From contig JAVLKG010000027.1 in NCBI GenBank assembly GCA_032128875.1, positions 1 through 14,566 on the forward strand: a stretch of DNA of 14,566 bases, in the 5' to 3' direction. This DNA is from Candidatus Melainabacteria bacterium 17Bon1m (GTDB taxonomy: Bacteria > Cyanobacteriota > Vampirovibrionia > Obscuribacterales > Obscuribacteraceae). The translations under genes were made by a program, and so were the position numbers. Every line of letters begins with the position of its first letter. Within the stretch, counting starts at the first letter, position 1. The notes below the pieces were generated by a model. It was not told the DNA's origin. It was given only the letters and a program-made list of their open reading frames with translations, and did not search any database. Shown here piece by piece: positions 1-14,566 of this stretch.

Positions 1-76
1 TTTTAGTGGCGGTTAATTCGAGCCAGAAACAGCGGATGATGTCGCGCCGAAGGATTTATGATGTCACGCCGCTACA
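1..76. mobile_element. Terminal inverted repeat (end) of a transposon whose body lies outside the window
   Basis: 1-76 is the exact reverse complement of 14490-14565. It ends in ...GCTACA, abuts the ACTAAT duplication, and contains two 14-bp internal repeats (36-49, 58-71). Confidence 0.85.
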
Positions 77-1438
77 ACTAATTGGTTGAGTGACAGTAAT
101 TCCAGCCAGATCGGCAGTAAAAAATGCATCGTCATCTTCATAAAACCGAGGAGCATCGGCTGGCTTTGGATTCGATTCCCTCACGAGAAAATAGTCATTG
201 TGGTTCGTGAACTGGAACCAGGTACTATCACTAATTGCTAGCCGGAATGCTGCATCAGTGCCTGATTGCCCTATTGTAATAAGGGTTTGAAGCATGATGT
301 TTTGGAACTGCGGGAATCCGACTGGCGTTACAGTCGAGATGCACAATCTGGCCCTGTCGCGAGGGAACAAGGTCAGACTCGTGGTAATTGGCGCACAGTC
401 GACACCGATCACAGTTGATTCACGGTAGAATGTCTGCTCGTCCGAATTTGAAGCCAGGGTAAGCACGCCGCCCCCACATGTCGCGTGGATGCCAACTTCT
501 GCAAGATCTGCATCGTTGTTCACTTCGGTGCGCAAGCCACATCTGATCTGATTCAGATTGTCGCCAGCTTGCGTAACGTAGCTTACTGTTTTCAGTGAAC
601 CAGGAAGGTCGACGTTGAAGACGGTGAATTGGACGGTTTCGCCCACCACAACCGGTCCGGCAACAGTGATTGTCTGAGCACCGTTTGTTTGCAAGAAGCT
701 ACCGAGCGTCATAGTTTCGGTGCCACCAGCCTTCACTTTTGCCGAATAGCTAGTGAATTTTTGGGTGGTTTCGAACGTCGGTGACTCGATCAGAAGAGTG
801 TTGGAGTCAACTGAGCTAACCTTAGCAGAGATGCCCAAAGCAGCAAGCGTGGTGCTGTTATTGATCTTGTTGCGCAGCCGAATAACGATGTCGGCTAGGG
901 TATCACCCGAGTTTGGCTTGTAAACAACGAGTTCTTTGCCGCCTTCGAGACCAACGTCATAGATGGTCAGAGTCAGTTTATCGTCTACAGTGACGGTACC
1001 ACCGATGGTGAGCGTCTGTCGGATGGCCAGGCGATTCGAACCGCCGCCTGTAGTCGTCTGCCTATAAACGGTGCCATTGGTTGACGTAGAAACAATGGTG
1101 TAATTGGCGCCGTTTTGAAGCGTCGCTGTCACTCCGATGGCTTGCAGTTCGGTATCAGCATTGATCGCCTGGACGATCTTGTTGGCGGTCTGGCGCAGAG
1201 TGTCGCCAGTCTGGAAAGCGTGAGTCACCGGTTTCTGACCGGTGGCAAGTCCGGTGTCAAACACGGTGATTGTGAAAACTGAACCATCCGGAGCAGCCAG
1301 AACCTGGCCAGCTTCGACTGCGTTTACGCGCGGGTTTATCGTCAGTGTTGCGGCATCTGCTTGGCTGGGAGCCAGCATAAGCCCGAAGGACAGCGCGAAC
1401 ACCGTCCCGAGAGCAGCTATTGCTCTTCGTAATTTCAT
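56..1438 (-). pseudogene. 5' part (454 native codons) of an interrupted secreted repeat-domain metallopeptidase gene; the last 6 codons (CSGVTS) and the stop come from the transposon end
   Basis: Sec-type signal peptide (MKLRRAIAALGTVFALSFGLMLAPSQADA), AAGGA RBS and three ~100-aa repeats. The frame ...CAA CCA ATT AGT runs into the element's TGT. Confidence 0.85.
77..82 (+). repeat. 6-bp target site duplication ACTAAT (copy 1)
   Basis: ACA|ACTAAT at 74-82 and ACTAAT|TGT at 14484-14492, directly repeated just inside each element end. Confidence 0.9.
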
Positions 1439-1500
1439 GCTTCTTCCTTTTTTGGAAAGTTGATGGATTTCCCCTCAATTCAAGTCACCAAGACTGAGAC

Positions 1501-1539
1501 GGCAAAAGGCACAACAGCGTTGCTGCCGATCTTTTTGCC
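1501..1539. promoter_or_regulatory. Nested imperfect hairpin in the leader of the peptidase gene
   Basis: GGCAAAA-GGCA-CAAC-agc-GTTG-c-TGCC-gatct-TTTTGCC, about 60 bp upstream of the start at 1438. Confidence 0.35.
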
Positions 1540-1895
1540 TTTGCGATTCCGAAAAGTCTGCGCCGAGCGCGTGGAATACCTGAGTCAGTGAATGTAAAGG
1601 AGGACCATCACCTTAGAAATTACCGCGTGACAATTTCAGCCGAAATTGCAGGCTGTGTGCAACTTTTGATTTTTCGTAATCATGAAAAGCTTGTCAGACT
1701 TGCGCGGACTGATTGGATGTCAGGCGCTCAGAAATATATGCAAGTCAAGGATCAGGGAGAAAGTAAATGCAAGCTAAATCCCTGCGCTAAGTTTGCATTA
1801 TCAAGAGCTAAGGCGCATCTGCCACAGTGCTGCCATGCAAAAGCGGCCAGTGACCGGTACCGGATATTATGTTTCACGCCACCACACATGATGGC

Positions 1896-1935
1896 AAAAC
1901 CGGGAAGGCTCGATAGGTGAGCTTTCCCGGTTTTT
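1896..1935. terminator. Intrinsic terminator, possibly bidirectional
   Basis: AAAACCGGGAAGGCTC-gataggt-GAGCTTTCCCGGTTTTT; A/T tracts on both sides; downstream of the minus-strand gene ending at 2023. Confidence 0.75.
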
Positions 1936-2022
1936 AGAATCCTGTGATACCTGATTTTCTATATTCCCCAAGGTTGTCAGTTATATCCCTGCACATATTT
2001 GGGGTGTCTAAATGCCTTGATT

Positions 2023-2355
2023 TCAGCTCCCATTCGCTTCTTTATCAGAAGCCAGCTTCCGCATCCTCTCTTCCAATCCGCGCCGGTGATAGAAACCACC
2101 ATCCATTTTTGCGGCCTCTGGAAAACACAGATCAAAAGTGGTTTCGACGTAGTCGAGCATTTTATTTACTTCCGGCGTCTCAAGATTTGTCTCCCCATGA
2201 CGCATTTCGTAGTCAAAAATTCCCAACGCGGAAAGCGCTAACAGTCGATCTTTCTCAAATGCCTTGTTTGCTTCATCCACTCCACTCGCTCCCAGGGCAA
2301 AGACGAGACGCAATCTGTCGGCATTGTCTTTCTTTTCAAAGTACGTGGGTAACAT
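2023..2355 (-). CDS. Hypothetical protein (110 aa, start MLPTYFEKK)
   Basis: Strong RBS AAAGGAGGACCC directly before the ATG at 2355; terminator downstream; no recognised family. Confidence 0.7.
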   Translation of the reverse strand: MLPTYFEKKDNADRLRLVFALGASGVDEANKAFEKDRLLALSALGIFDYEMRHGETNLETPEVNKMLDYVETTFDLCFPEAAKMDGGFYHRRGLEERMRKLASDKEANGS

Positions 2356-2499
2356 GGGTCCTCCTTTCTGTGACTCCACCTTTAGCCTAAATGCATTTTT
2401 TTCCAATAGCAAAACTTTTTAGCGGCTTAAGCGGATGCCAGCCTGTGCGGGTTTCAAGACTCCATATCGCTTTTGATTTACAAGTCCTATACTTTCGGA

Positions 2500-2757
2500 A
2501 TGAAGCTGACATCAAAAACTATCATTGTCCTTGCCACGTTCTTTTTCTTTGCTGGCGGTAGCTATTGCGCCTGGATTATGGACGATAACAACCTTCTGCA
2601 AGGTGCTTCCACGCAGAGCGAAATAGCTCGACGCTTTACCGAACGACGCAACGATATTATTCAAGCTTTCCTAATCGGTGGCTGTTGCTCGGGTCTAATT
2701 GCTGGTGGTCTGTTGCTTGCTGTTCAAAAATTTACCAACCGGCATGGTGACTCTTAA
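2500..2757 (+). CDS. Small membrane protein with two predicted transmembrane segments (85 aa)
   Basis: ATG at 2500 (MKLTSK); hydrophobic stretches TIIVLATFFFFAGGSYCAWI and IIQAFLIGGCCSGLIAGGLLLAV; converges on and overlaps the SLT-like gene by 26 bp. Confidence 0.6.
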   Translation: MKLTSKTIIVLATFFFFAGGSYCAWIMDDNNLLQGASTQSEIARRFTERRNDIIQAFLIGGCCSGLIAGGLLLAVQKFTNRHGDS

Positions 2758-3565
2758 TCCAGATGAGTTGCTCGTGTACGTGGTTAAAATGCGCCTTTCC
2801 GCCCGGATTGTAGTCTTGAATCAAAGCTTGATGGGTTATTGGTAAACCAGATGCCTCTCTTCTGCTGATGTTCTCAGCCAGAAGCGCTGCCACAAACCAA
2901 GGCGCTTTTTCTGGATTAAGCGCAGCGCGAAGTGGATTTCCAGCGATGTTGCCCAATTCAGGGTCGTTTAATTGCGGATACGATTGCATCAATCGTTCAA
3001 TATTCTGCTTCTGTATTTGCGCCGGTCCAATGGAAAGGGACTCTTTAGGCAGGTCACCAAAAACGTTCAAGATGCCTTCCACTGGCTTTTCTTTTGCATC
3101 GCTGTAGAAATGAAGTTCATTGCGAATCAGTGCCGGAATAAGCGCGCGGTCAATATTTGGATGCCTCGCGAATTCTGGAAAAGCTGCGTATGCAGCGGCG
3201 CAAGCAGTGTAATGAACCTGTGTATCTTCTTTACCGCGCAATGGAAAAACTAACTGCTCGGTCTTATCTCTCACAAATCCAACGGCCTCGCCTGTTTTTG
3301 TTTTCACATCCTTTAGCGGGTCCCAAGCCACACGCTCCCCTTTTGATGAAACTTCTGTTCCATCACCCATATCAATCAACAGCGGATTGCTATCGGCATA
3401 GGCTTTCATATCACCAAAGGTATTGAATTTGTTTGTTCTCTGGGCCTCTGCTTCTGTCACCTGGTCATTGTTTACAGTTCGATCCTTGCCCAAATTGTCC
3501 AGCCTTTTTAGGGCTGCGTCTGGCTTTTGCTCTGGCTGGTCGGCTGGTTTTTGAATCTCTGCCAT
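2732..3565 (-). CDS. Lysozyme-fold / lytic transglycosylase (SLT, GH23-like) domain protein, 277 aa
   Basis: Ordered SLT-like motifs: IDRALIPALIRNE (catalytic Glu position), SIGPAQI (GxxQ), LNPEKAPWFVAALL and DYNPG (AYNAG-like). ATG at 3565 with GAGG upstream. Confidence 0.65.
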   Translation of the reverse strand: MAEIQKPADQPEQKPDAALKRLDNLGKDRTVNNDQVTEAEAQRTNKFNTFGDMKAYADSNPLLIDMGDGTEVSSKGERVAWDPLKDVKTKTGEAVGFVRDKTEQLVFPLRGKEDTQVHYTACAAAYAAFPEFARHPNIDRALIPALIRNELHFYSDAKEKPVEGILNVFGDLPKESLSIGPAQIQKQNIERLMQSYPQLNDPELGNIAGNPLRAALNPEKAPWFVAALLAENISRREASGLPITHQALIQDYNPGGKAHFNHVHEQLIWIKSHHAGW

Positions 3566-3621
3566 GCCTAGAAGCCTCAAGAATTTGGCACTTTCCCAGT
3601 ATACGCCTCAGTTGGAACGAC

Positions 3622-3978
3622 CTAACGCAATGTGGGATTTCCCCAGTTGTGAAGCTCTTCTTCAACCATCAGAGCACAAACACCTTTCACACTCTTCAAC
3701 AGATTGACGAGTTCTGCACCATCTACGGTTAACGCATATTCCACCCGTGGCGGCACTACTTTAAAGGCCGTCCGTTCAATAAAGCCGTACTTCCTCAAGG
3801 TCGTAAGTCTCTCTGTCAGTGTTTTTGCGGATATAGGAGCCAGGTTCTTTAGCAGCTCCCCTGTTCTTTTCTTTCCTGAAGATAACTGAATCAAGACTGC
3901 AATTGTCCATCGAGGGCTTAGAAGCTTCAGGACGCCATCTATGGCCGGTGTGTCTTGCGGCTTCAAAGTTACTGCCAT
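3622..3978 (-). CDS. HxlR-family winged-helix transcriptional regulator
   Basis: Hallmark pattern RWTIAVL...KRTGEL...ISAKTLTERL...GFIER...VPPRVEYALT; its ATG directly follows the upstream stop (TAGATG). Confidence 0.92.
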   Translation of the reverse strand: MAVTLKPQDTPAIDGVLKLLSPRWTIAVLIQLSSGKKRTGELLKNLAPISAKTLTERLTTLRKYGFIERTAFKVVPPRVEYALTVDGAELVNLLKSVKGVCALMVEEELHNWGNPTLR

Positions 3979-4530
3979 CTATTTGCCCTCGGTTTTTATC
4001 AGCTGAGCCATAAGTCCTTTGTGCCCCATCTCCATAGAAGCTGAATAGCCGCTGGTGGCTCTATTTCCGGCTCTCCAGACTAGCTCCGTTCCGTCGATGA
4101 TCGCCTCATACTTCCACTGGTCCTTATCCCAGGGTGCAGCCTTCTTGTAGTTTGGGTCGTGTCTCAACCACCACCACATAGCGAATTCTTCGCGCTTCTT
4201 GTAAGGAATGTAGGTATCGGTAAGATTGTCCAGGCTCTCACCTTTTTCCCGTGCCCAGTTTTGAAGGTCAAGTGAGAATGCTGCTTTCACATTGTTTGCG
4301 ACTTTACCATAGCCTGATTTGAATTTTCTGGGACCAGTCGGAAACCAGTCTTTACTAGGGTTCTTGTCCTGTTCGCCAGCTATCTCCATTATTGTTTTGA
4401 AAAAGGTCGGACTTCTTTTTTCCGCTCCGGTGTCATTTGGAATTGCCGTCGATGTGTCTGCCAATGCGGCGATTCCGAAAGAAAGACCCAGGACCGTAGC
4501 CGTTATCTTTTGTGCTGTCTGCTTTTCCAC
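3979..4530 (-). CDS. Hypothetical exported protein (183 aa; start re-called to GTG at 4530)
   Basis: GGAGG RBS 6 nt before the GTG, which overlaps the upstream stop (TAGTG). The N-terminus EKQTAQKITATVLGLSFGIAALA is signal-peptide-like. Confidence 0.7.
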   Translation of the reverse strand: MEKQTAQKITATVLGLSFGIAALADTSTAIPNDTGAEKRSPTFFKTIMEIAGEQDKNPSKDWFPTGPRKFKSGYGKVANNVKAAFSLDLQNWAREKGESLDNLTDTYIPYKKREEFAMWWWLRHDPNYKKAAPWDKDQWKYEAIIDGTELVWRAGNRATSGYSASMEMGHKGLMAQLIKTEGK

Positions 4531-5039
4531 TACATACCTCCAGGTGTTTGCGGTCCTAGCTGTGCGCAAGTTCTGATGCGCTTGTTGATCGTTCTGACAA
4601 TATTCGTGTTCAGATAACCGCCCGGCGGAATCTCGTAGATGTGCCAGCGGTAAAGGATTAGAGTTGCTCCATCTTGCTGCGGCTGAAAATCGACGTAGCA
4701 AGTCAGCTGACGAATCACGTCCCGCACGCCTGGAATTTCTTCTGTGTATTGGACCATGGTAGTGATTCTCAAAACGTCCGGATCGGCTTTTGCATTGACA
4801 CCGAGATGCCCGACGTTCGGCGTCAGGTCCCGCATCATCTGCAACCAAAGGTCATCCACAGCGAATTGAGAGTAAAAACTGCCTTCTCTGGCTTCCATCG
4901 CCAGGTCATCTTTTCGCTTCTCTTCGAAGTCGTTGTAAGCTTTCCCAGCCTCATCAGCCACTTTTTTGGCTGCATCTTTGCCGAGGTCGAAGAGCTTCTT
5001 TCCCCAGTCGAGCGCCTTCTTTTTCATTTCCTCGTCCAT
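4530..5039 (-). CDS. Hypothetical protein (169 aa) in the mobilization operon
   Basis: Starts 8 bp after the coupling-protein stop; charged helical N-terminus followed by an alpha/beta domain. Confidence 0.8.
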   Translation of the reverse strand: MDEEMKKKALDWGKKLFDLGKDAAKKVADEAGKAYNDFEEKRKDDLAMEAREGSFYSQFAVDDLWLQMMRDLTPNVGHLGVNAKADPDVLRITTMVQYTEEIPGVRDVIRQLTCYVDFQPQQDGATLILYRWHIYEIPPGGYLNTNIVRTINKRIRTCAQLGPQTPGGM

Positions 5040-5047
5040 TTGTGCCC

Positions 5048-7012
5048 CTAAATGTCCGTGTGATCTCTCTTTGGTTTCTCAGGCTCTGCTTGCTCTTCTG
5101 GTTCTTCGTTTTGCTCGTCCGGATCTTCGGCTTCAATATATTGCTGTCTATCTGAATCCCGTGACGGCATTTCGTCGTTGGACTGCGTTTGCTTTTGAAT
5201 TTCTTCTTTTGCATCCTCTTCGGCCAAAGGCGATTCTCTCATCTCTTCGCGCCTTTTTCTTTCGCCCTGGACCTGCCAGTCCTGCACTTCTTGAAGCTCC
5301 TTGCAGTCCTTCACAAGCCGGTCATCAATTGCCACTACCGGCTTAACGACGCCTGGTACTTTCATCGCCATTTCATAGTCGCGCCAGGTGAATCTCTCCA
5401 TAAGCATTGGCGATGTACGTGGCGTGAATACCAGCATTTTGCTATCTGGCAGTGACATTACCTCACTGGGATCAATGAGAGGCCGTCCGCTTTCTTTCTC
5501 TTGTATTTGTCCTGTGCTCGATACTTTGCGTTCGTAGACTGTGGTTTGACCGGCCATTTTGCTGATTCTCTCAGCCACATCAATTGTCCTGGGCCTAAAG
5601 AAAATCCGGCATCCAAGCTGGCCAAACATGATGGTTGCTTCTTCTCGCCCATATACGCGCTCTAGTTGCATGGCGTCTTGAATGCCCAGCATGACGCCGA
5701 TTTTCTTGTGTCGAATTATTCCTAGCCTGTCGGCTATCCCTGGAATCATGCCGAAATTGGTGAATTCATCTAGGCTCAAAAATAACGGATTCTCGAAATG
5801 TTGCTCTTCGGCGTATTGAAGAACATAGTTGAAGATGAGCGCCGCTACTGGCTTGAGATGCGATTTTCTTGCAGGCACTGCCAGATAGAAAGTGAATTTC
5901 TCTTTTGCCAGTGAGTTCAGATCAATTGTTGTTTTGCTTGTCAGCGCCACCACTCTAGGGTTAACCCAGAGCGCCAGGCGCTGCATCAGACTGGCGAAAA
6001 CGCCGTATCTAAAGCCTTCTCGACTTGTCTTGTGAAAGCCGCCATACTCGCCGCGGACTGCCTCTACTGGGCTTGTCTGCATCTGCGCTACCAGATCGTC
6101 GGGCCCTTCTTTCAAGAGACCCCGGATATAACCTAGGTCTTTGCCGAGCGCTGCCGCATGGGCAATGAACATGGTCAGTAGGTTTGTCTCGGCTTTGGGC
6201 CAGACATCGTCCCCGTAATTGTTCTTGCTCGTTGTGTTCTCAACTATGAGCTTTGCCAGGTTTTGGGCATCTGCATAGCTTTTGACAGCATCGACCGGAT
6301 TGATGCAATCCGATGCCATGTCGTCCGGATTGAAGTAATAAATCTTCTGCCGCCCTGCGCCTTGCCTGTACCCAGAGGTTTTGGCATAAAGGTCGGGCGG
6401 CTCATTTCCTGCTGTTGCCTCTGTGACTATCGCGCTTGAGTCCAGCCTTTCAATCAGATTGGGAATGAAGATGCTTGTAGTTTTCCCTGAGCCTGTCGGC
6501 CCACAGACTAGCGCATGCATTGCCGTGTCTTCAGGCGTCAAGGTCACATAGTTGTCGTCTTCTCCAGGGCTTACAATCATTCGCCTGGAATCTTCCACAC
6601 CAGCCCAATAGTCCGCTTTGACTATGTCTTCATGCGTTGCCCATTTTGCAGATCCGTACCTTGTGGGCTTCGGCTGCTCTTCATTTGCCTGTATTAAAAC
6701 CACTGCGGAATCAGCTATCCGCTGCATAATCTCATCGCACTTTGCCTTGCAGTGCGTAATCGTCCAACGGTTTCTCTCTTCCCTTACTTCCAGCTTGAGA
6801 AGGCACCCTGAGCCGTTCGGCTGCCAATTGAACGTAGCGAAAAACTCATAAGAAAAGGGCCGCTCTGCTTTTATTTGCGTAGCTACAAGCTGTCGCATTC
6901 TGTCGTTCACTGTCACTGGACGCCAGCCAAGCCCGGTCAAACAAACGACAAGTAGCTCTGCCATGTCCGCTGGTGCAACGGCTAATTCCTGTGTTGCTGT
7001 CTCAGCTGGCAT
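5048..7012 (-). CDS. virD4: Type IV coupling protein, VirD4/TraG family
   Basis: YGSAKWAT motif, Walker A GPTGSGKT, FNP..S.CINP, Walker B LSLDEFTNFG, QDAMQLERVYG, VAERISKMAGQTTV, GRPLIDPSEVMSLP; acidic C-terminal tail. Confidence 0.93.
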   Translation of the reverse strand: MPAETATQELAVAPADMAELLVVCLTGLGWRPVTVNDRMRQLVATQIKAERPFSYEFFATFNWQPNGSGCLLKLEVREERNRWTITHCKAKCDEIMQRIADSAVVLIQANEEQPKPTRYGSAKWATHEDIVKADYWAGVEDSRRMIVSPGEDDNYVTLTPEDTAMHALVCGPTGSGKTTSIFIPNLIERLDSSAIVTEATAGNEPPDLYAKTSGYRQGAGRQKIYYFNPDDMASDCINPVDAVKSYADAQNLAKLIVENTTSKNNYGDDVWPKAETNLLTMFIAHAAALGKDLGYIRGLLKEGPDDLVAQMQTSPVEAVRGEYGGFHKTSREGFRYGVFASLMQRLALWVNPRVVALTSKTTIDLNSLAKEKFTFYLAVPARKSHLKPVAALIFNYVLQYAEEQHFENPLFLSLDEFTNFGMIPGIADRLGIIRHKKIGVMLGIQDAMQLERVYGREEATIMFGQLGCRIFFRPRTIDVAERISKMAGQTTVYERKVSSTGQIQEKESGRPLIDPSEVMSLPDSKMLVFTPRTSPMLMERFTWRDYEMAMKVPGVVKPVVAIDDRLVKDCKELQEVQDWQVQGERKRREEMRESPLAEEDAKEEIQKQTQSNDEMPSRDSDRQQYIEAEDPDEQNEEPEEQAEPEKPKRDHTDI

Positions 7013-7015
7013 TCC

Positions 7016-8422
7016 TTAACCTAAGCCCCTGTCGAACCCATCGTCTATTTCCTTCTCTTGCTCTATCTTGGTCTGGTCGCCGGATGCGTCTGCATGAACT
7101 TGATCGATCGCTAAATCCTGATTTGCGCGATCGGCTACTAAATTGCCGCTTCCTGTTGCCGGTTCTCCCGCGCCCTCTCGTTCTTTGCCTTGCTCTAATT
7201 CTTTCTCTGGTGACTTCCAATTCTCCCCTAAAAGCGCGTCAAAATCTTGCCACTTGTCGCCTTTCGGCTGCAATGGATTTAGGTCCTGGTCTAGCTGCTT
7301 CAGTTCTTCCAGCTGCCTCTCGAAGTCTTCTTTTCGGTCTGGAAACCGCTCCATCAAGTCCTTAAGCCGCTGCTCAGCCATTGCGTCTGTATAACTTCGG
7401 TGTTCCGGAGAGAGCCGCCCCTGCTGCTCTCTCATCCATTGCTTGTAGCCTTTTCCAAAGTCGCCGCCTTTCTCCATTTCTTTGAAGGCGCGCTTCAGGT
7501 CCTTGTCCAGCTTCTTAAACTCGCGGTCGTCCTCAAAAGGATCGCGCTCTTTCTCTTTTTTCTTTTCTTTCTTGTCCCACTTTGCGCGCGCTTTGCGCTC
7601 GTAGTGGTCATCTCCATGATTTTCTTTTGTCCAGATCCATTGCCCGAGCTTCTGGTAATGCTCGTCGGGCAAACGTTCAACCTCTGCGCCTTTGAGCTTT
7701 TCGGCTACTTCCTTGAGGTCTTCCAGATTTGAATATTTGCTATAGGTTATGCCGCCCCTTTCGAATTTTTCAGCATCAGGCAAATACTCAACGGCTTTGT
7801 CTTTCTCCCAAGCCTTCGGCTCATACGGCTTCCTGTCTGTTGCTTCGCGTTCGCGCTCCGGATTCAAGTCTTTGATTAATGCCTCAAAGACGTTGTCTCC
7901 GCGATCTCGCTGGTATCCCTGCTCTATTTGCCGGTCCATGTCCCTGGGCAAATACCGCTCTAGGAAGTGATGCCGCTCTAAGTAGCGGTCACCTGCTTCG
8001 CGCATGTTCTTGTAATCGTCGCGATCAAACAGCACTTCTCTGCCGTTCTTGTCTTTGCCGTAGACGATCACATGTGCATGGTCATGGTCTGTATTCCTGT
8101 GAACTACAGCCCGCCAGTCGAGGTCTAAGCCTTTTTCTCTGCCGACATCTTTTAAGACATCGCGCGTGTACTTCTGCATATCGACGTTTTGAAGCCCTGG
8201 CGACAAGATGAGCTTGTGGGCCACTACCTTGGAGCGCTCGCTGTTATCAATGTCTTGCTTAACTTCCCGCCCCTGGATGCCTTCTCTATCCGGGCTGAAA
8301 AACTCTCGGGGCTTTTCGTCTCGGTCGGGTCCGTGCCTGTATTGAATGTAATTGACGTGCGCTTTTGCCCTGGCCCTGCCGCTCGCGCCCTTGATGTAGC
8401 TATGCTTAGCTACCGACCGCAT
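7016..8422 (-). CDS. HUH relaxase, MOB-P / VirD2-like
   Basis: Motif I AHVNYIQYR (catalytic Tyr), motif II AHKLILSP, motif III AVVHRNTDHDHAHVIV; charged C-terminus; a MOB-P nic site lies upstream. Confidence 0.9.
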   Translation of the reverse strand: MRSVAKHSYIKGASGRARAKAHVNYIQYRHGPDRDEKPREFFSPDREGIQGREVKQDIDNSERSKVVAHKLILSPGLQNVDMQKYTRDVLKDVGREKGLDLDWRAVVHRNTDHDHAHVIVYGKDKNGREVLFDRDDYKNMREAGDRYLERHHFLERYLPRDMDRQIEQGYQRDRGDNVFEALIKDLNPEREREATDRKPYEPKAWEKDKAVEYLPDAEKFERGGITYSKYSNLEDLKEVAEKLKGAEVERLPDEHYQKLGQWIWTKENHGDDHYERKARAKWDKKEKKKEKERDPFEDDREFKKLDKDLKRAFKEMEKGGDFGKGYKQWMREQQGRLSPEHRSYTDAMAEQRLKDLMERFPDRKEDFERQLEELKQLDQDLNPLQPKGDKWQDFDALLGENWKSPEKELEQGKEREGAGEPATGSGNLVADRANQDLAIDQVHADASGDQTKIEQEKEIDDGFDRGLG

Positions 8423-8828
8423 CGCTTACTATCTCCGTAGCTTCAGGGTCGCCGCCCTTTCGTTTTTTTCTCAACCGCTCCAGGGCGTTTCGTCTTGCTT
8501 CGTCCCAAAGGTCGTCCCTGTCTTTCTCCGACGCTCTTTTGTAGAAGACTTGCTGTATTGTCCCTACGTCAATTAGCGTCCTGGCTGCCAGTTTTGCCAG
8601 ACGTTCGGTGTCCTTTTTCCGGTCAAGCTGCATTGCCTCAAGTATGTCTGCCAGCCTGTCGCGGGCGTTGTCCTCAGCTTTCTTGTCATAGCTGTCGATG
8701 AATTGCAGCAGGGCCTTACGCGCCAATTCGGTTTCTGTTTTCCCTTCGGCGCGGCAAATTTGTTCGAACTTGTAGCGGTCTTCGACAGCTAACCGGGTCC
8801 GGATTGGGTCTGTCTGCTTCTTCGGCAT
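8406..8828 (-). CDS. Relaxosome accessory protein, ribbon-helix-helix (MobC-like)
   Basis: N-terminal RHH pattern PIRTRLAVEDRYKFEQICRAEGKTETELARKAL; lies between oriT and the relaxase and overlaps the relaxase start. Confidence 0.8.
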   Translation of the reverse strand: MPKKQTDPIRTRLAVEDRYKFEQICRAEGKTETELARKALLQFIDSYDKKAEDNARDRLADILEAMQLDRKKDTERLAKLAARTLIDVGTIQQVFYKRASEKDRDDLWDEARRNALERLRKKRKGGDPEATEIVSDAVGS

Positions 8829-8856
8829 TGAATTTCACCATTTGCATGCAGGCTTG

Positions 8857-8884
8857 CAAGATAGTCGAATATTCGACTATCTTG
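8857..8884. promoter_or_regulatory. Perfect 28-bp palindrome upstream of mobC
   Basis: CAAGATAGTCGAAT|ATTCGACTATCTTG, no spacer, no mismatch. Confidence 0.7.
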
Positions 8885-8885
8885 G

Positions 8886-8990
8886 TACTTTAGGGCATAC
8901 TTTTTCGAGTTACTTTAGTTCAGGGCATCCGTAATTGATGACTCTGTTTCATTATATCACTTTCTAGGGCACAGCCTTTATCCTGCCTTA
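8886..8990 (+). other. Origin of transfer (oriT), predicted nic between 8985 and 8986
   Basis: TATCCTG^C at 8979-8986 matches the IncP/T-border consensus YATCCTG^Y. It is preceded by three ACTTT..AGGGCA repeats (8886-8898, 8911-8928, 8958-8972). Confidence 0.8.
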
Positions 8991-9112
8991 CTACGTAACG
9001 GCGCTGCGCGGTCCCGTGGGTTGCGTCTCGTTGCCTACTCGCCGCCCGTGCCCGCCGGAAGTAGTCGCCACACATTCGGACAGCACGACCGCCTAATCAG
9101 ATCTCTACGCTT

Positions 9113-9181
9113 CCACTCATCTATCGTGCGGCTAAAGCCCCCTCGGGGCGTGCGGGGTTCATCAAGCCACGATGGAAGTGG
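9113..9181 (+). other. Long imperfect hairpin just 3' of nic; candidate single-strand initiation signal
   Basis: CCACT-ca-TCTATCGT-gc-GGCT pairs with AGCC-ACGATGGA-AGTGG around an inner GCCCC-ctc-GGGGC stem. Confidence 0.45.
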
Positions 9182-9358
9182 CGCTTTCTGCTTTGAACGC
9201 AGGCGGAGCACATACCCAAAGCAACCAGCTCAGTCTTTGCCAACATCTAGAAAGCAGTAACGCCGTAACGGCGAGTTTCATCTGTAACTAGGGAATTCCA
9301 CCTACCGAAAAATTACCAATGGGACAAAGATGTCATTAGCTACTTCTGAGGACATGCC

Positions 9359-9619
9359 ATGAAAAACAACGCCGATATGATCAGCCGCGAATCTGTTGAA
9401 AATTGCATGCTCGATACTATGCGTTTGCGGGCGGCGTTGATGATTGCCTGTCTGGAATTGACAGACGGCGATTTGGAGGAAGCTATGGACCTTTCCGAAC
9501 ACTATTACGACTTGGCACCCACACTGATTGATGGACTGACAGAAGAGGGTTTGAGCAATTTACCTGGCGGCCCGGCTCAAATCCTGCCATTCCAAAAGAA
9601 GCCGAAAACCGACAAGTAG
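9359..9619 (+). CDS. Hypothetical acidic protein (86 aa)
   Basis: GAGGA RBS upstream; fills the intergenic space between oriT and the toxin locus; no recognised family. Confidence 0.65.
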   Translation: MKNNADMISRESVENCMLDTMRLRAALMIACLELTDGDLEEAMDLSEHYYDLAPTLIDGLTEEGLSNLPGGPAQILPFQKKPKTDK

Positions 9620-9626
9620 ACGCACC

Positions 9627-9654
9627 AAAGCGGCCCCTCTTCTGAAGAGCCGCT
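9627..9654 (-). terminator. Terminator hairpin of the small toxin mRNA
   Basis: Minus strand GCGGCTCTTC-AGAA-GAGGGGCCGC-TTT; the G-U pairs form on the minus strand; about 20 nt after the peptide stop. Confidence 0.65.
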
Positions 9655-9674
9655 CCAATGCTAGCTTTCAGCCC

Positions 9675-9737
9675 TTAACCTTTGACGGCTAGAACTGCCA
9701 GCGTTATGATGAATAGAACTACGATCAATTCCATCAT
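9675..9737 (-). CDS. 20-aa hydrophobic peptide MMELIVVLFIITLAVLAVKG; putative type I toxin (Ibs-like)
   Basis: Translated by hand (below the ORF-track cutoff). RBS AAGGAGGT 8 nt upstream, own terminator, opposing terminator beyond the RBS. Confidence 0.8.
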   Translation of the reverse strand: MMELIVVLFIITLAVLAVKG

Positions 9738-9766
9738 GGTGGTTTACCTCCTTCTTGGGATTGTGT

Positions 9767-9803
9767 GCAGGGGACGGAGTTACCGCTCTGTCCCTTGCTT
9801 TTT
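9767..9803 (+). terminator. Intrinsic terminator
   Basis: GCAGGGGACGGAG-ttaccg-CTCTGTCCCTTGC-TTTTT; 13-bp stem whose G-U pairs form on the plus strand. Confidence 0.8.
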
Positions 9804-10024
9804 GTGATGTCTGAAGGCTTTTGGCCTTACCCTAATGAATTGTATCGAGGTGGGAAATTTGTCTTTCCTGTCTCAATCAATCCATCTAGAGAGAGTTTAT
9901 CGGGCTCCAAAAGCCAATCAATTCGATTTCAATTTGCCGAACCTGAAAACACTGATTGGGCAAATTTTTCGGAGCTTCTGTCTGTCCCAGCCATCATCTA
10001 GAACCCCTGAAGTATGGTCAACGC

Positions 10025-11695
10025 TCAGGAACTTGGTGGATCTCGTCCAGCATGATTCCAGTGAAATAAAAGAATCTCCCGCTTCCACATCTGCCCTTCT
10101 GCCTGAAGACCGTCAAAACTGGGTCCCAGGGGAAAGCCTTCCGAAGGAACCCGAAGGGCTTGGGCTTTCTGCTGGGGTTTTGATGGTTGGCTATTCGCCA
10201 GGCAGATTGAAAGCGGGACTACCTTAGCTGTAATTGGCTGTTCTTGTTCTTCAAAGTCGAAATCCTGAGAAAAAGGAATTTCTGACTTTTCTTTTTTTTC
10301 AAAACCAACTTCCACAAGCCGAACCGGAAGCAATACCCCCGGATCTAGATCGCCTGCGGCCCTTGGCAATTGAGCACCTGAAGATATACTCCAGATGTCT
10401 TCGTGTTTTTTTACTGTGTGATAGCTGCAACCCGTGAGCCTCATGATTTGCCGCCCAGTTACTCGCCGTCCTTGGTCAAGCAAGAACTGCTTTGCGGTCC
10501 TTATCTTGTCTCGTGCCGAAGCTTCTCGTTTTTGATTTGCTCTCTCCAGGTCTGCCGGTGTCCAGAGGTACCCTGTTTTCTTGGTCAAACCAATTAAGGC
10601 ATCCTGCTGGGTCTCCGTGGTCATATACGGGACATATTCGGATTGGGGCTGCTCTTGTCCCCTCCATTCGCAAGCCCGTCTTATATGCTCGTCTAGCTCC
10701 CTCCAATTGCTACGACGTACATGCCTGCATTTGCCGTTGTGATTTCGGGCCAGCCAGTCTTTTAGAAATTGCTGCCGCCTCTCGTCGTTGTGCTCTCCTG
10801 GCATTTTTGGAATGCCTCTTTCTGCATCTCCAAACCAGAGCAAATGCTGGATTGCATAAATTGCTGAATGTCGTTGACCTTCTTCAGTCAGCCCCTGGTC
10901 AAGGAATTTGCGAGCTTCCTGAATACGTTCGGGAATTCGTTTTGAATGCCAAAGTAATTCGAAACCGTCTAAATCAAGCGCATTCTCATTGCCCTGGGCG
11001 TTGCTGGCGACGCCGGCGCCGGCAGCTCTGCCGGCGGAATGTATTTGGCTGTCTATGAGCCTTTTGGCTTCCCGCCAATTTCTGCAATTTTTTTCGAAGT
11101 CTTGAAGGAATGAGGCTAGCGCCTCGTCTTCTCTAATTTCTTCTCTTCTAACTTTTATGCTTCCATCCGAACTGAGCCAGGCAAAGCCTTTCTGAAGCGG
11201 CAGCCTTAAGGCATTTCCACTTGGAAAAATCTCGAGCTGTCCGGAGATGATTTCATATCCCAAAGATTTCAGCCAGGTCTTTAGCGTCTGGTTTACTTCG
11301 TCACTTTCAGCCCACTCATCAAATGGTAAATACAGGTGCCAGCCGCCTGAATCGCTCGATTGATACGGAATTGCGTATAGACCGACTGCAGTAAAATGCT
11401 CCTGCAGTTTTTGGAGCTCGGCTGCATTTCGGTATCTGCTATTTCTATCGATATCCAAGACTGCATGCCGGGTCTTGTGTGACCAATAGCAGCCTCTAAA
11501 AAGCCCTCGCCCCTCATCTGACATCACGCCAAATATCTGTGCGTCCAAGAGCGGTCCCGCAGCCTTCTGCCAGCGCTCCTGGTCATATGTCTTCCAGATG
11601 AAGCAATCACGACGCGGAAACAGCGACAAAAATTTCTGTCGTAGATCCAAAAGATCTGGCGTCCTTTCGGACGCTCTCAAAGCAATGGAGTTCAA
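10025..11695 (-). CDS. Plasmid replication protein with an archaeo-eukaryotic primase (AEP/prim-pol) domain, PriCT-like helical region and C-terminal HTH
   Basis: Motif I HAVLDID (DxD), motif II QSSDSGGWHLYL (SxxGxH), EIFP..NALRLP, EGQRH (PriCT-like), HTH TGRQIMRLTGCSYHTVKKH. The start codon is uncertain. Confidence 0.8.
   Translation of the reverse strand: MNSIALRASERTPDLLDLRQKFLSLFPRRDCFIWKTYDQERWQKAAGPLLDAQIFGVMSDEGRGLFRGCYWSHKTRHAVLDIDRNSRYRNAAELQKLQEHFTAVGLYAIPYQSSDSGGWHLYLPFDEWAESDEVNQTLKTWLKSLGYEIISGQLEIFPSGNALRLPLQKGFAWLSSDGSIKVRREEIREDEALASFLQDFEKNCRNWREAKRLIDSQIHSAGRAAGAGVASNAQGNENALDLDGFELLWHSKRIPERIQEARKFLDQGLTEEGQRHSAIYAIQHLLWFGDAERGIPKMPGEHNDERRQQFLKDWLARNHNGKCRHVRRSNWRELDEHIRRACEWRGQEQPQSEYVPYMTTETQQDALIGLTKKTGYLWTPADLERANQKREASARDKIRTAKQFLLDQGRRVTGRQIMRLTGCSYHTVKKHEDIWSISSGAQLPRAAGDLDPGVLLPVRLVEVGFEKKEKSEIPFSQDFDFEEQEQPITAKVVPLSICLANSQPSKPQQKAQALRVPSEGFPLGPSFDGLQAEGQMWKREILLFHWNHAGRDPPSS
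10098..10206. repeat. Multi-stem inverted repeat inside the 3' end of the rep gene; candidate origin or priming site
   Basis: Nested arms TCTGCCTG/CAGGCAGA, CCGTCAAAAC/GTTTTGATGG, CCCAG/CTGGG and GAAAGCC/GGCTTTC. Confidence 0.5.
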
Positions 11696-12054
11696 GGCCT
11701 AACGGTCAATCCCTGAAAAAAGGACGCACTTGACCCTAGGAACCCAATCACTTATGATTCAACTGCGACATCGAATACATAAGTTTTCGGCCCCAGCCGC
11801 CTAAATCAGCCGCCAAGCTGATTTTTCGGCTTTTTAGGACTTTTGCGCGGTCGCTCTTCTCCTTTTTTGGTGCCACCATTGCAGGTGGCATATCTGATAA
11901 CCCATAGTTGATCCTACGACGGTAAAAGCCTGAATTCAAGCAGCCTGTTTGAATTTCGGGATATCCAAGAGATCACCCAACGGATATATCGCGCCTTTAC
12001 AGGTGGTGGCACGAAGTCTCATAATGCCCATGTAATCGCACATGAGGACGATCC

Positions 12055-12630
12055 GTGGCAGAACATGCGCAAGAGATCAAATTTGATCCAAGTTCAATCG
12101 AAGGGATGGACGATTTACTGTCCGGTCCGGACCTGCACACCCCCGGATCGGACAAGACTAGTCCGGATCTGACCAGTCCGGACATTGCCCACTGGTGGAC
12201 ATTGCCCGAGGCTACAACAGCCCTTAAGGTTAACGAGCGTACTCTTAGAAGATGGATAAAGAGCGGAAAAATAGAAGCTTCCAAGGTTCAAGGCACATAC
12301 GGTGACGAGTGGCGAATCAAGCCCGGATCAGAGATAACCTGTCCGCCGGTCATAACCGGACCGGGCAAGCCCGATCCGGCGCCCCGCGGTCAAAGCAGTG
12401 CGGACAGCCCGGACATGCCAGCGGATTTGCTAGAGACGAAAATCAGACTTGCCATTATGGAGCAGGAGAACCAGCAACTTAAACAGCAATTGCAGGGCGC
12501 AACGTTCAGAAATGGCTATCTGGAAGCACAGCTTGAAGGCAAGGACACCCAAATCAAACTCCTGACGGACAGCCAGCACAAGCGTGGTTTTTGGGCTCGG
12601 TTTAGCTCTTGGTTTGTGACCGGCAGATAA
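12055..12630 (+). CDS. HTH (MerR/excisionase-like) plus coiled-coil protein; candidate single-protein plasmid partition factor
   Basis: WTLPEATTALKVNERTLRRWIKSGKIEA, coiled coil MEQENQQLKQQLQ...LEAQLEGKDTQIKLL, amphipathic tail KRGFWARF; GAGGA RBS; divergent from rep. Confidence 0.8.
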   Translation: MAEHAQEIKFDPSSIEGMDDLLSGPDLHTPGSDKTSPDLTSPDIAHWWTLPEATTALKVNERTLRRWIKSGKIEASKVQGTYGDEWRIKPGSEITCPPVITGPGKPDPAPRGQSSADSPDMPADLLETKIRLAIMEQENQQLKQQLQGATFRNGYLEAQLEGKDTQIKLLTDSQHKRGFWARFSSWFVTGR

Positions 12631-12820
12631 CCAGGTGTTTCACTTGTCGTCGAAATCACGGTCACTACATAAAGTAATAGTGACAAGCCAAAAGTAAACA
12701 GAGGTGGGTTCTTGAGTCTTCAAAACAAACAAGCCAAGTGCTCTTCAAAGACTTATGGTGTAATGCGTGAAAGAGTACCGACCCAATTGGGCAAAACCTC
12801 TAAACAAAGTTCCTCATGGA

Positions 12821-13714
12821 ATGGACATGCATATGCCAAGATTTCAAATCATTCTTGTTTTGTTGCTTTTGCTTTTCTTTCAATCAAACAGCCTGTCTTT
12901 TGCCTCAACAGAAGTAGCAGCAGTTTCAGAAATAAAAAAAGGAGAGAAGCTGTTTTCTGCTGATTGGCCAGCTGAACGCCCGCCTGGTGATTCTTTATTG
13001 GTTTTCAGTTCGAGTAATTGCGGAGGAGCAAACAGAACACCTCGGTATTTTGCATACTGGATTCACAGTTATTTTGAGCCAAAGAACCTCTCAGAAAAAG
13101 CAAAAGCACAACTTCGGCTTGAGATAAAGACTAAGGACTGGAAAAACTGGTACAAGCTCTGGACAGCAAATTGCACACCAGCGGACATTTTTTACATTGA
13201 ACAGGTAATTTGGGAGGCGTCTCCTTTGGCTCGCACTAATGGTGCGACTTCATCAGGAAAGTGGAGTCTTAGCCACAAAGGAGTGGAATTTATAACGGCG
13301 CAACAGCGACTTGAGAAAAAGGTGAAACCACTTTACGAACCGACTGTTGCAGGAAGTCCGAAAAATGATGTCCTCGGCCGAATAAAAAGCGGCGAGGGGC
13401 TTTGCAACAACTTTTCCTGCAAAACCCTCTACCGTAATGAGCATCCTGATGTTACAAAAGAAATTGCTGTGGTGCATTTTGTTCCTTTGAGCGCAGCACA
13501 GTGCTTTCCTACAGCCATTGAGCAAAATGAATTGCATAGTCTCAAAAATTTGAAGGCGCTGGAGATAGATAAATGCAATTCAGCTCAGTTAGACTCATTC
13601 CGTGATGAGTGGACACAGTTTCTCAAGAAACCCGCAAATACAATGAGTCGGCAAATGGTTCTCAAAGAAGCGGACCGGCTTGCAGCCAAATATCACTCAC
13701 TGTTTTTGAATTAA
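12821..13714 (+). CDS. Hypothetical secreted protein (start at ATG 12821, 12827 or 12833)
   Basis: Signal peptide MPRFQIILVLLLLLFFQSNSLSFA; long open frame; visibly more AT-rich than the mob genes. Confidence 0.75.
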   Translation: MDMHMPRFQIILVLLLLLFFQSNSLSFASTEVAAVSEIKKGEKLFSADWPAERPPGDSLLVFSSSNCGGANRTPRYFAYWIHSYFEPKNLSEKAKAQLRLEIKTKDWKNWYKLWTANCTPADIFYIEQVIWEASPLARTNGATSSGKWSLSHKGVEFITAQQRLEKKVKPLYEPTVAGSPKNDVLGRIKSGEGLCNNFSCKTLYRNEHPDVTKEIAVVHFVPLSAAQCFPTAIEQNELHSLKNLKALEIDKCNSAQLDSFRDEWTQFLKKPANTMSRQMVLKEADRLAAKYHSLFLN

Positions 13715-13787
13715 AGGACAAAAAAGAAGCAGCAGCTAGTATTTGATTCACCAACTGCTGCCAAGTCCATTTAGTACTTCAGGATTT

Positions 13788-14489
13788 TTATGATCCTGGG
13801 AAGATTCTCACTACTTCTGTTGTTCCATCACATTTGTGCACGGTGCCGTTTGGCCCGCTCCCGATCGGTGCAACATAGCCAATACCTGTAATGGTAGGCG
13901 CTCCGTCTTGGATCAAAGTTCTAACTACTTCGTATGTGCACATGAACGGAATGCCGTTGAGACCGTAACTACTACCATTGATTTGATTTCCGTTGTTATC
14001 TACTGTATCGGGGAAGCCAAGTACTACTGCCGCTTCCTCTGCAAATAGTTCAGCGTCCTGGTCGTCTGGGTCGGGCAAGTTAGGATAAAGTCGCGGCCAA
14101 GCCTGCTGTGCAATTTCGACGTTGCTACCACCATAGATCGGTGTACGACCTGCATTCCCCGGTGCGCCACAAATATAGTTTCCATGCGAATCCAGCATGT
14201 TGGTAAAGATTCCATCATACAGAACTGGTGGCTCGCCCGGTAGAGCAGGATCAGAAATCTCGATTGTGCATGCATTGGCGGCGTTCATACCTGTGAGATC
14301 GCGTGTTAGCGCGGCTTGGAAAGTAGCCGTTTTAGAATAACCATCTATATTGCCACCATTATAAATGGAGTCCAGGTGGTGTCCGGTCTCGTGAGCGGTA
14401 ACATGCGACACACTTTCGGTGCGCATTCCACCGGTAGGCGAGGTGTTTTCAAAGATTGCAGATGAGTACACGGTTGATGCACCACTAAT
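13788..14489 (-). pseudogene. 3' part of the interrupted gene: HExxH zinc metallopeptidase domain (gluzincin / lethal-factor-like)
   Basis: The frame ATT AGT GGT GCA TCA ACC GTG TAC begins at the duplication. TAHETGHHLD (HETGH at 14379-14393), S..ATFQAAL..D, and AELFAEE as the third-ligand motif. Confidence 0.85.
14484..14489 (+). repeat. 6-bp target site duplication ACTAAT (copy 2)
   Basis: Immediately precedes TGTAGCGG at 14490. Confidence 0.9.
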
Positions 14490-14566
14490 TGTAGCGGCGT
14501 GACATCATAAATCCTTCGGCGCGACATCATCCGCTGTTTCTGGCTCGAATTAACCGCCACTAAAAG
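14490..14566. mobile_element. Opposite terminal inverted repeat of the same transposon
   Basis: Starts TGTAGCGGCG; internal repeats CGGCGTGACATCAT (14495-14508) and CGGCGCGACATCAT (14517-14530) with a 22-bp period. Confidence 0.85.

Follow-up and report, generated by a model that had tools for sequence, protein, structure and literature searches.

The 14,566-nt contig JAVLKG010000027.1 of Candidatus Melainabacteria bacterium 17Bon1m (here referred to as the window, i.e., the whole stretch of DNA that was analysed) begins and ends with the same sequence in inverted orientation, and this raises the question of whether it represents a linear replicon with telomeres, a misassembly, or a circle that was opened by a mobile element. 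We report that the window very probably corresponds to a 14,407-bp circular, mobilizable plasmid of Obscuribacteraceae, which are non-photosynthetic relatives of cyanobacteria, with one transposon of approximately 3.7 kb inserted in the gene for a 685-aa secreted HExxH protein and the target sequence ACTAAT duplicated. The genome assembly of which the window is the entire contig 27 (G000:C27) comprises 35 contigs and 7.55 Mb and is 93% complete. The situation is an ordinary one, a small mobilizable plasmid with a transposon insertion at which the short-read assembly broke off, while what is mildly new is a complete plasmid from an uncultured lineage, an insertion polymorphism and a widespread, under-annotated transposon family. 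A linear-looking contig is thereby turned into a complete closed plasmid of a lineage with few described mobile elements.

The contig ends and the assembly

Direct comparison gave positions 1-76 as the exact reverse complement of 14490-14565, in agreement with a first-pass annotation made from the sequence alone, and the last base (14566) is one more base of the transposon. The left end (1..76) constitutes the outermost 76 nt of a terminal inverted repeat, the tip of which (...GCTACA) meets plasmid DNA at 76/77, and the right end (14490..14566) the outermost 77 nt of the other, with its tip (TGTAGC...) at 14490. Each end includes two 14-nt repeats, ATGATGTC(G/A)CGCCG, located at 36-49 and 58-71 on the left and at 14495-14508 and 14517-14530 on the right. 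In a repeat search the arms extend to 1-80 and 14486-14565 with 99% identity, because the adjoining ACTAAT is nearly palindromic.

The length of these repeats can be understood from the other contigs of the same assembly. Exactly 77 nt are shared with another end at 44 of the 70 contig ends, and 75-77 nt at 47 of them; evidently, the genome was assembled using a de Bruijn graph with k = 77. The identity over 76/77 nt thus equals the k of the assembler and, consequently, the length of the terminal repeat of the window is not biological. The inverted ends are the outermost part of longer terminal repeats of a transposon, which beyond k could not be crossed by the assembler. For assemblies in general this is a caution, in that inverted contig ends of exactly k bases indicate an unassembled repeat and not telomeres. 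The end repeat of the window was not detected, contained or terminal, in any other of the 35 contigs. With respect to the remaining contigs, inverted ends of 77 nt are likewise seen in the 1.13-Mb contig C2 and are common to one end of C11, and C24 and C26 have 77-mers in common at both ends of each, as expected of an approximately 40-kb replicon broken at two copies of a repeat.

The target-site duplication and the empty circle

Immediately inside the inverted ends, ACTAAT is present at 77..82 and again at 14484..14489, as had been noted in the first-pass annotation, and it occurs as a single copy in contigs representing the empty site (see below). We conclude that ACTAAT is a 6-bp target-site duplication. 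The target consensus of the element is NNTANN, with the central T-A present at all 25 junctions read; given this preference, two unrelated junctions would match over 6 bp by chance in approximately 1 case in 76, and empirically 2 of 210 junction pairs matched.

The window was compared with the Logan contigs of four sequencing runs (X1, X3, X4 and X8). In three of these (X3, X4 and X8, representing three studies) single contigs join position 14483 directly to position 77, that is, with a step back of 14407, flanks of 255 nt or more on both sides and eight bases that fit either side; moreover, the X3 contigs tile nearly the entire circle. These contigs demonstrate that an empty 14,407-bp circle with one ACTAAT exists. 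Both the size of the empty replicon and its junction had been predicted from the window in the first-pass annotation. The circular topology is further in keeping with a circular and colinear plasmid in a congeneric genome (G094:C192, see below). The X1 run, a possible source of the assembly, has only the filled form, where contigs covering 47-1292 and 12008-14506 enter the repeat on the two sides. Per-run depths are contig-wide figures and were not used as copy numbers. A filled plasmid in the assembly and an empty one in three runs, together with perfect repeats and an intact duplication, suggests that the transposition was recent.

These data also bear on the possibility that there is no real insertion and that the ends result from misjoining of a mirrored or hairpin kind. 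Misassembly of this type does arise at long inverted repeats, and one metagenome contig discussed below (Ga0209174_10007513) is an example of it. The two flanks in the window, however, differ from each other, they correspond exactly to the two sequences that adjoin the empty site in relatives and in other runs, and they carry a proper 6-bp direct repeat; in addition, X1 has contigs that cross from the plasmid into the repeat at either end. A misjoin is therefore a very improbable explanation.

The gene interrupted by the insertion

The insertion separates two parts of one gene, both on the minus strand: a 5' part of 452 codons (83..1438), the product of which has an N terminus resembling a signal peptide and also a repeat region, and a 3' part of 233 codons (13788..14489), which encodes an HExxH motif (HETGH). 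The plasmid part of the open reading frame (ORF) at 56-1438 (460 aa) ends at base 83, between two codons (1438-83+1 = 1356 nt, or 452 codons), and six further codons and a stop are then read within the repeat. On the other side, the frame of the 227-aa ORF at 13788-14471 is open up to 14489, which gives the 233 codons. When joined with one ACTAAT the two parts are in frame and encode 685 aa.

Three congeneric genomes (G085:C43, G094:C192 and G092:C786) have the two halves head to tail in a single open frame without stops, encoding 682, 682 and 683 aa as counted from the aligned ATG. The N half of the window protein is 87-90% identical to these uninterrupted genes (first 450 residues) and the C half 81-95% (C-terminal third); in the alignment they occupy columns 1-451 and 454-685, respectively. 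The DNA of the relatives across the insertion site reads ...ACTGTCACCGTGCAAATTGGCGCAGCG..., which lacks one codon relative to the window when the latter is given only one ACTAAT. Hence, the suggestion that the terminal ORFs belong to one gene of approximately 685 aa is borne out by homologs in which the halves do form one polypeptide.

No Pfam or NCBIfam family matched the product of the split gene. Among the 104 genomes of the family, 62 encode giant proteins with relatives of the repeat region of this product. The C-terminal domain may be zinc-peptidase-like, as judged from the HETGH motif and weak language-model leads: in the Protein Atlas the best scores were 0.91-0.92, with recognition under the guide value, and the small zinc-peptidase-like clusters retrieved are to be taken as leads only. 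A structure model of this domain (9-row alignment) had a mean predicted local distance difference test value (pLDDT) of 47.8 and a predicted template modelling score (pTM) of 0.36, which is too poor for use. Since the insertion cuts the catalytic-looking domain from the start and the signal peptide, the copy of the gene in the window is almost certainly inactive.

Beside the 3' part, on the plus strand, is a 315-aa ORF (12767..13714) with no assigned function that accompanies the split gene in relatives. Window positions 12636-14484 are 98% identical to G085:C43, where the 315-aa ORF adjoins the intact gene. In this 305-kb contig, a 3.6-kb segment at approximately 149.3-152.9 kb corresponds to window positions 12636-14484 plus 141-1884 (86-98% identity) and carries the 315-aa ORF and the intact split gene. 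The remaining plasmid is lacking there, which indicates that the two genes form a cassette that moves between replicons.

The transposon and its copies

BLAST detected the 76-nt end beside unrelated DNA in 13 of the 103 other family genomes. It is mostly located 60-140 nt from contig ends and TGTAGCGG... always begins where the unrelated flank stops; 99%-identical ends were found at contig ends in three genomes (G017, G080 and G081). The exact 30-nt tip gave no match in a genome-contig index.

Two copies reveal what lies behind the ends. An almost complete copy in G028:C159 encodes a serine resolvase (Pfam Resolvase PF00239, E 1e-46), a 548-aa DDE transposase and a 324-aa AAA_22 ATPase (E 6e-15), and its repeats match perfectly from position 103, at the contig start, to 206. 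A complete copy in a metagenome contig (Ga0209174_10007513) has tips identical to those of the window (77/77 nt), a length of 3,717 bp and perfect repeats of 201 nt. Comparing the latter with the G028 copy, the resolvase, transposase and ATPase are 95%, 89% and 81% identical, respectively. This metagenome contig (6,079 nt) is a perfect mirror, consisting of a 1,181-nt flank, the 3,717-nt transposon and the same flank reverse-complemented, because the 201-nt inverted repeats caused a misassembly. In both copies the only long forward-strand ORFs are the three that encode the resolvase, transposase and ATPase (at least 80 aa in the G028 copy; at least 150 aa in the identical-tipped copy), and the other ORFs are on the opposite strand and overlap these three genes. 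The ends of the G028 copy carry two 14-nt repeats near the tip (with a 22-nt spacing) and four repeats of 20-21 nt further in.

That the same end lies beside unrelated flanks and runs into transposition genes shows that the ends belong to a transposon. In this respect the first-pass annotation, which had assigned the ends to a transposon, was right, as the sequence continues into the resolvase, transposase and ATPase genes. Given perfect repeats of approximately 200 bp, which an assembler with k = 77 cannot pass, the result is a linear contig with 76-77 nt of repeat on each side.

For the transposase, matches to NCBIfam IS481 and IS21 models were all below cut-off, and a phmmer comparison with PDB sequences (E up to 1) returned 0 matches; the ATPase had only chance-level P-loop matches to PDB sequences. 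None of the transposon proteins was detected in G000 by tblastn at E 1e-5, and at E 1 one chance-level match to the resolvase appeared, hence the body of the element was lost from the assembly. Among five other genomes searched, the body is present in G020 and absent from G017, G080, G081 and G077. The copy in the window presumably has the same body as the identical-tipped copy.

Perfect inverted ends on a replicon of approximately 14.5 kb are typical of tectivirus-like and linear-plasmid genomes, which would suggest telomeres, as in a protein-primed plasmid or phage. In relatives of the element, however, the repeat continues outward for 201-206 nt and is followed by transposition genes, the same ends flank unrelated DNA, and the contigs of three runs close the circle without them. 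Moreover, the length of the repeat in the window is the k of the assembler, and no protein-primed polymerase, terminal protein or telomere resolvase was identified by Pfam among the 14 ORFs scanned. A linear replicon is thus extremely improbable, and the linear telomeres that the first-pass annotation had named as the outcome that would overturn its proposal did not materialize.

Simple insertion or cointegrate

A likely transposition pathway can be outlined. The transposase would bind the arrays of approximately 20-bp repeats in both ends, the AAA+ ATPase would help to capture the target, and a staggered 6-bp joining would take place at NNTANN sites; a replicative cointegrate could then form, which the resolvase would separate, leaving a simple insertion. 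Replicative transposition through a cointegrate is expected, since the element encodes a resolvase but no TnsA-like second nuclease. For resolvase-bearing elements without tnsA, a replicative mode is predicted in the available text of PMC8649781, and the pathway of the element in the window is probably of this kind.

A cointegrate, with the plasmid incorporated in another replicon between two element copies, either as a replicative product awaiting resolution or following recombination between copies, has accordingly to be weighed against a simple insertion. It is an intermediate to be expected of a resolvase-bearing, TnsA-less element (PMC8649781, as far as the available text goes), and it would give an identical 6-bp repeat and the same split gene. 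In addition, at least one further junction of the element (a loose end at 80) is present in X1. On the other hand, none of the other contigs of the assembly ends in or contains the repeat, the 30-nt flank of the extra X1 junction is absent from G000, the element has its own resolvase, and a free, empty circle of the same plasmid is present in three other runs. We therefore regard a cointegrate as unlikely and favour a simple insertion, i.e., one copy of the element, because no other contig of the assembly carries the end. The first-pass annotation had left the choice between a simple insertion and a cointegrate open; of its two options the former is now preferred, and the latter keeps a lower weight.

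Several observations weigh against a plasmid with one complete copy of this transposon. The contigs, with 77 nt of perfect repeats of 200 bp, cannot tell one copy of the element from two, and the extra junction in X1 is accompanied by the absence of the empty junction from the X1 contigs. The body of the copy in the window is itself absent from G000, and its content is taken from the identical-tipped copies. As to the duplication, the complete metagenome copy is located in the mirror-artefact contig and has no readable duplication of its own, and among five related copies in a finished Nostocales genome one has unrelated flanks; three of these five have exact 6-bp duplications and a fourth matches at 5 of 6 bases. 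With regard to the plasmid itself, the replication function proposed below for a 556-aa protein leans on weak, below-cut-off matches. Taking these points into account, we still consider one insertion of the transposon in a circular plasmid very probable.

The plasmid backbone

Genes with a predicted role in mobilization are located in the middle of the window on the minus strand. A type IV coupling protein (VirD4/TraG-like) is encoded at 5048..7012 (PF02534, E 5e-55; PF12696, E 7e-24) and matches the NCBIfam VirD4-like CD1115 family with 192 bits, which is under the cut-off of 250. A relaxase with a MobA/VirD2-like nuclease domain is encoded at 7016..8422 (PF03432, 27.8 bits with a cut-off of 24.6) and shows weak matches to RlxS and MobP under their cut-offs. 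The 140-aa ORF directly upstream of and overlapping the relaxase gene (8406..8828, minus strand) has no Pfam match and, judging by its position only, may encode a relaxase accessory protein. Pfam families of the type IV secretion channel were not matched by any of the scanned ORFs. With a relaxase and a coupling protein present and no genes for a mating channel found, the plasmid looks mobilizable rather than conjugative on the basis of its predicted genes.

Replication might involve a 556-aa protein encoded at 10025..11695 (minus strand), for which matches to a primase-polymerase (E 4e-5) and to KfrA_N (E 0.006) were below cut-off; it is 51% identical over 303 aa to a protein of another plasmid of the family (G017:C59). 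A DNA-binding protein of the HTH_17 (MerR/excisionase) type is encoded on the plus strand at 12055..12630 (PF12728, 30.3 bits with a cut-off of 27). Between runs, the most variable stretch is 11100-12550, where contigs fragment and substitutions cluster at 11696-11843; one X8 contig skips 12042-12551 (508 nt) and G094:C192 also is without 12064-12550. This stretch may be non-coding DNA that is variable or rich in repeats, for instance an origin.

The remaining ORFs discussed here are on the minus strand. They include a 282-aa ORF (2732..3580) with no Pfam or NCBIfam match and a transcription regulator of the HxlR type (3622..3978; Pfam PF01638, E 4.6e-21). Positions 3979-5039 hold two overlapping ORFs in different frames, 3979-4848 (289 aa, TTG start) and 4530-5039 (169 aa), neither of which has a family match.

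Related plasmids and distribution

A related plasmid in a congeneric genome is G094:C192, a contig of 11,666 nt with a 55-nt terminal direct repeat, an overlap that indicates a circle. It is colinear with the window in five blocks with 74-89% identity, including across the insertion site, and carries the split gene uninterrupted. Unlike the window it is approximately 2.8 kb smaller and has no transposon, and at the sensitivity of this comparison it has no nucleotide match to much of 2.1-10 kb, including the genes for the coupling protein and the relaxase.

A different small plasmid from another genus of the family (G017:C59, 1-14540) is unrelated to the window in DNA, while its relaxase is 35% identical to that of the window. 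This plasmid was opened by the same element: both of its ends carry 137 nt of the repeat, and the duplicated 6-bp target is in this case GATAGC. It also encodes TPR proteins and an alpha/beta hydrolase.

Searching PLSDB with the window using megablast gave no match. Near-identical plasmid sequence (window positions 1-10000) was indexed in 20 of the 24 listed runs, representing 12 studies, with a fraction of 0.78-0.99 of the sampled words present. The habitats are drinking water, wastewater, aquatic, lake, marine, hydrothermal vent, activated carbon and bioreactor, and two runs are labelled as single organisms. Eight of the indexed runs are flagged as possible sources, so the 20 runs are not all independent. 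This spread could reflect either a cosmopolitan organism of water systems or a recurring contaminant.

The plasmid was not mentioned in any title or abstract returned by a literature search for plasmids in Obscuribacter. It may be, although this is somewhat less probable than not, that this is the first complete small mobilizable plasmid described for Obscuribacteraceae, that it is present almost unaltered, with or without the insertion, in water-system metagenomes of a dozen studies, and that it carries a member of a currently active, widespread transposon family that has not been formally described.

Comparison with known transposons

In its architecture the element resembles Tn552 of Staphylococcus aureus, which according to the available text of PMC3276174 encodes a resolvase, p480 and p271, and has terminal repeats of approximately 120 bp and 6-bp duplications. 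Both combine a serine resolvase, a DDE transposase and an ATP-binding protein with long terminal repeats, 6-bp duplications and arrays of repeats in the ends. Arrays of binding sites in the ends are described for the Tn7, Tn5053 and Tn552 groups (PMC8649781, available text). The repeats are 201-206 bp in the present element, of which the window shows 76-77 nt, vs approximately 120 bp in Tn552; duplications of 6 bp were read in the window (ACTAAT), in the second small plasmid (GATAGC) and at three of the five Nostocales copies.

At the protein level, the G028 copy and the Tn552 on pMW2 have resolvases that share 54% identity (E 1.5e-46). Similarity between the transposase and p480 of Tn552 is limited to the catalytic core (24% identity across 140 aa, E 1e-5, in a search of a single locus with a frameshifted p480), and the transposase has no Pfam match. 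The ATPase and p271 are both P-loop ATPases, and tblastn of the former gave no match to the p271 gene of pMW2, the best match being located elsewhere (E 0.085). Furthermore, unlike Tn552 the element has no bla cargo and resides in a different host phylum. We therefore describe it as an element that, as far as its genes and ends indicate, would work like Tn552, and we do not file it as a member of that group.

Other known groups share part of this architecture. As in Tn5053/Tn402 and TnsA-less Tn7-like elements, a DDE transposase is combined with an AAA+ regulator and a resolvase, and there are TGT ends and subterminal arrays. The element does not conform to the Tn7-like or Tn5053 groups: no TniQ/TnsD selector is encoded in the two copies examined, and no TniQ, TnsB or TniA model was matched in Pfam or NCBIfam. 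Tn402-like elements are described with 25-bp repeats and 5-bp duplications (PMC4739549, available text). Nor does it conform to an IS481 insertion sequence, the transposase scoring 70.6 bits vs the NCBIfam cut-off of 224 and the element having three genes and 200-bp repeats. Tn6049 of Cupriavidus metallidurans, which is 3.5 kb and in all copies has the ATPase gene gspA (ExeA-like) (PMC2864759, available text), shares its size and an ExeA/GspA-like ATPase with the element. Its 12-bp imperfect repeats and 4-bp duplications (PMC4739549) set it apart, and a resolvase is not mentioned in the parts of these two descriptions that were available; likeness and difference are here drawn from descriptions only. 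Searching the literature for a published name of this transposon family gave none, and a paper on ISPa40 (PMC9952335) considered in this context concerns, according to its available text, a Tn3-family element and is irrelevant.

The closest relatives in sequence are unnamed elements on enterobacterial and cyanobacterial plasmids, with genes recorded as 'recombinase', 'IS481 family transposase' and 'ExeA family protein'; the database records annotate them as loose genes and not as a transposon. In PLSDB the transposase matches 914 records, most of which are from Salmonella, Klebsiella and Yersinia and 17 from Nostoc; in 624 of the 914 the match covers at least 80% of the transposase. Homologs with 53-62% identity are present in many cyanobacteria, methanotrophs, Acidobacteria and others, and the cyanobacterial copies are approximately 3.7 kb with repeats of 166-280 nt at 17 of the 19 loci examined. 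A copy on the Salmonella Dublin plasmid pOU1115 (68.3-72.9 kb) shares the order of the genes, with identities of 55% for the transposase (over 544 aa), 49% for the ATPase (over 322 aa) and 46% for the resolvase, and has 205-nt inverted repeats (95% identical) that begin with TGTAGCGGC, as in the element of the window. It differs in being 4.6 kb and enclosing a carbonic anhydrase gene as apparent cargo, and its two flanks do not match each other.

These under-annotated relatives sit on many plasmids, including virulence plasmids of Salmonella, and they could be annotated as transposons once the ends (TGTAGCGGC..., approximately 200 bp) and the 6-bp NNTANN target are defined. If this assignment holds, one family, comparable with Tn552 in its architecture, extends across cyanobacteria, methanotrophs and Acidobacteria as well as virulence plasmids of Salmonella.

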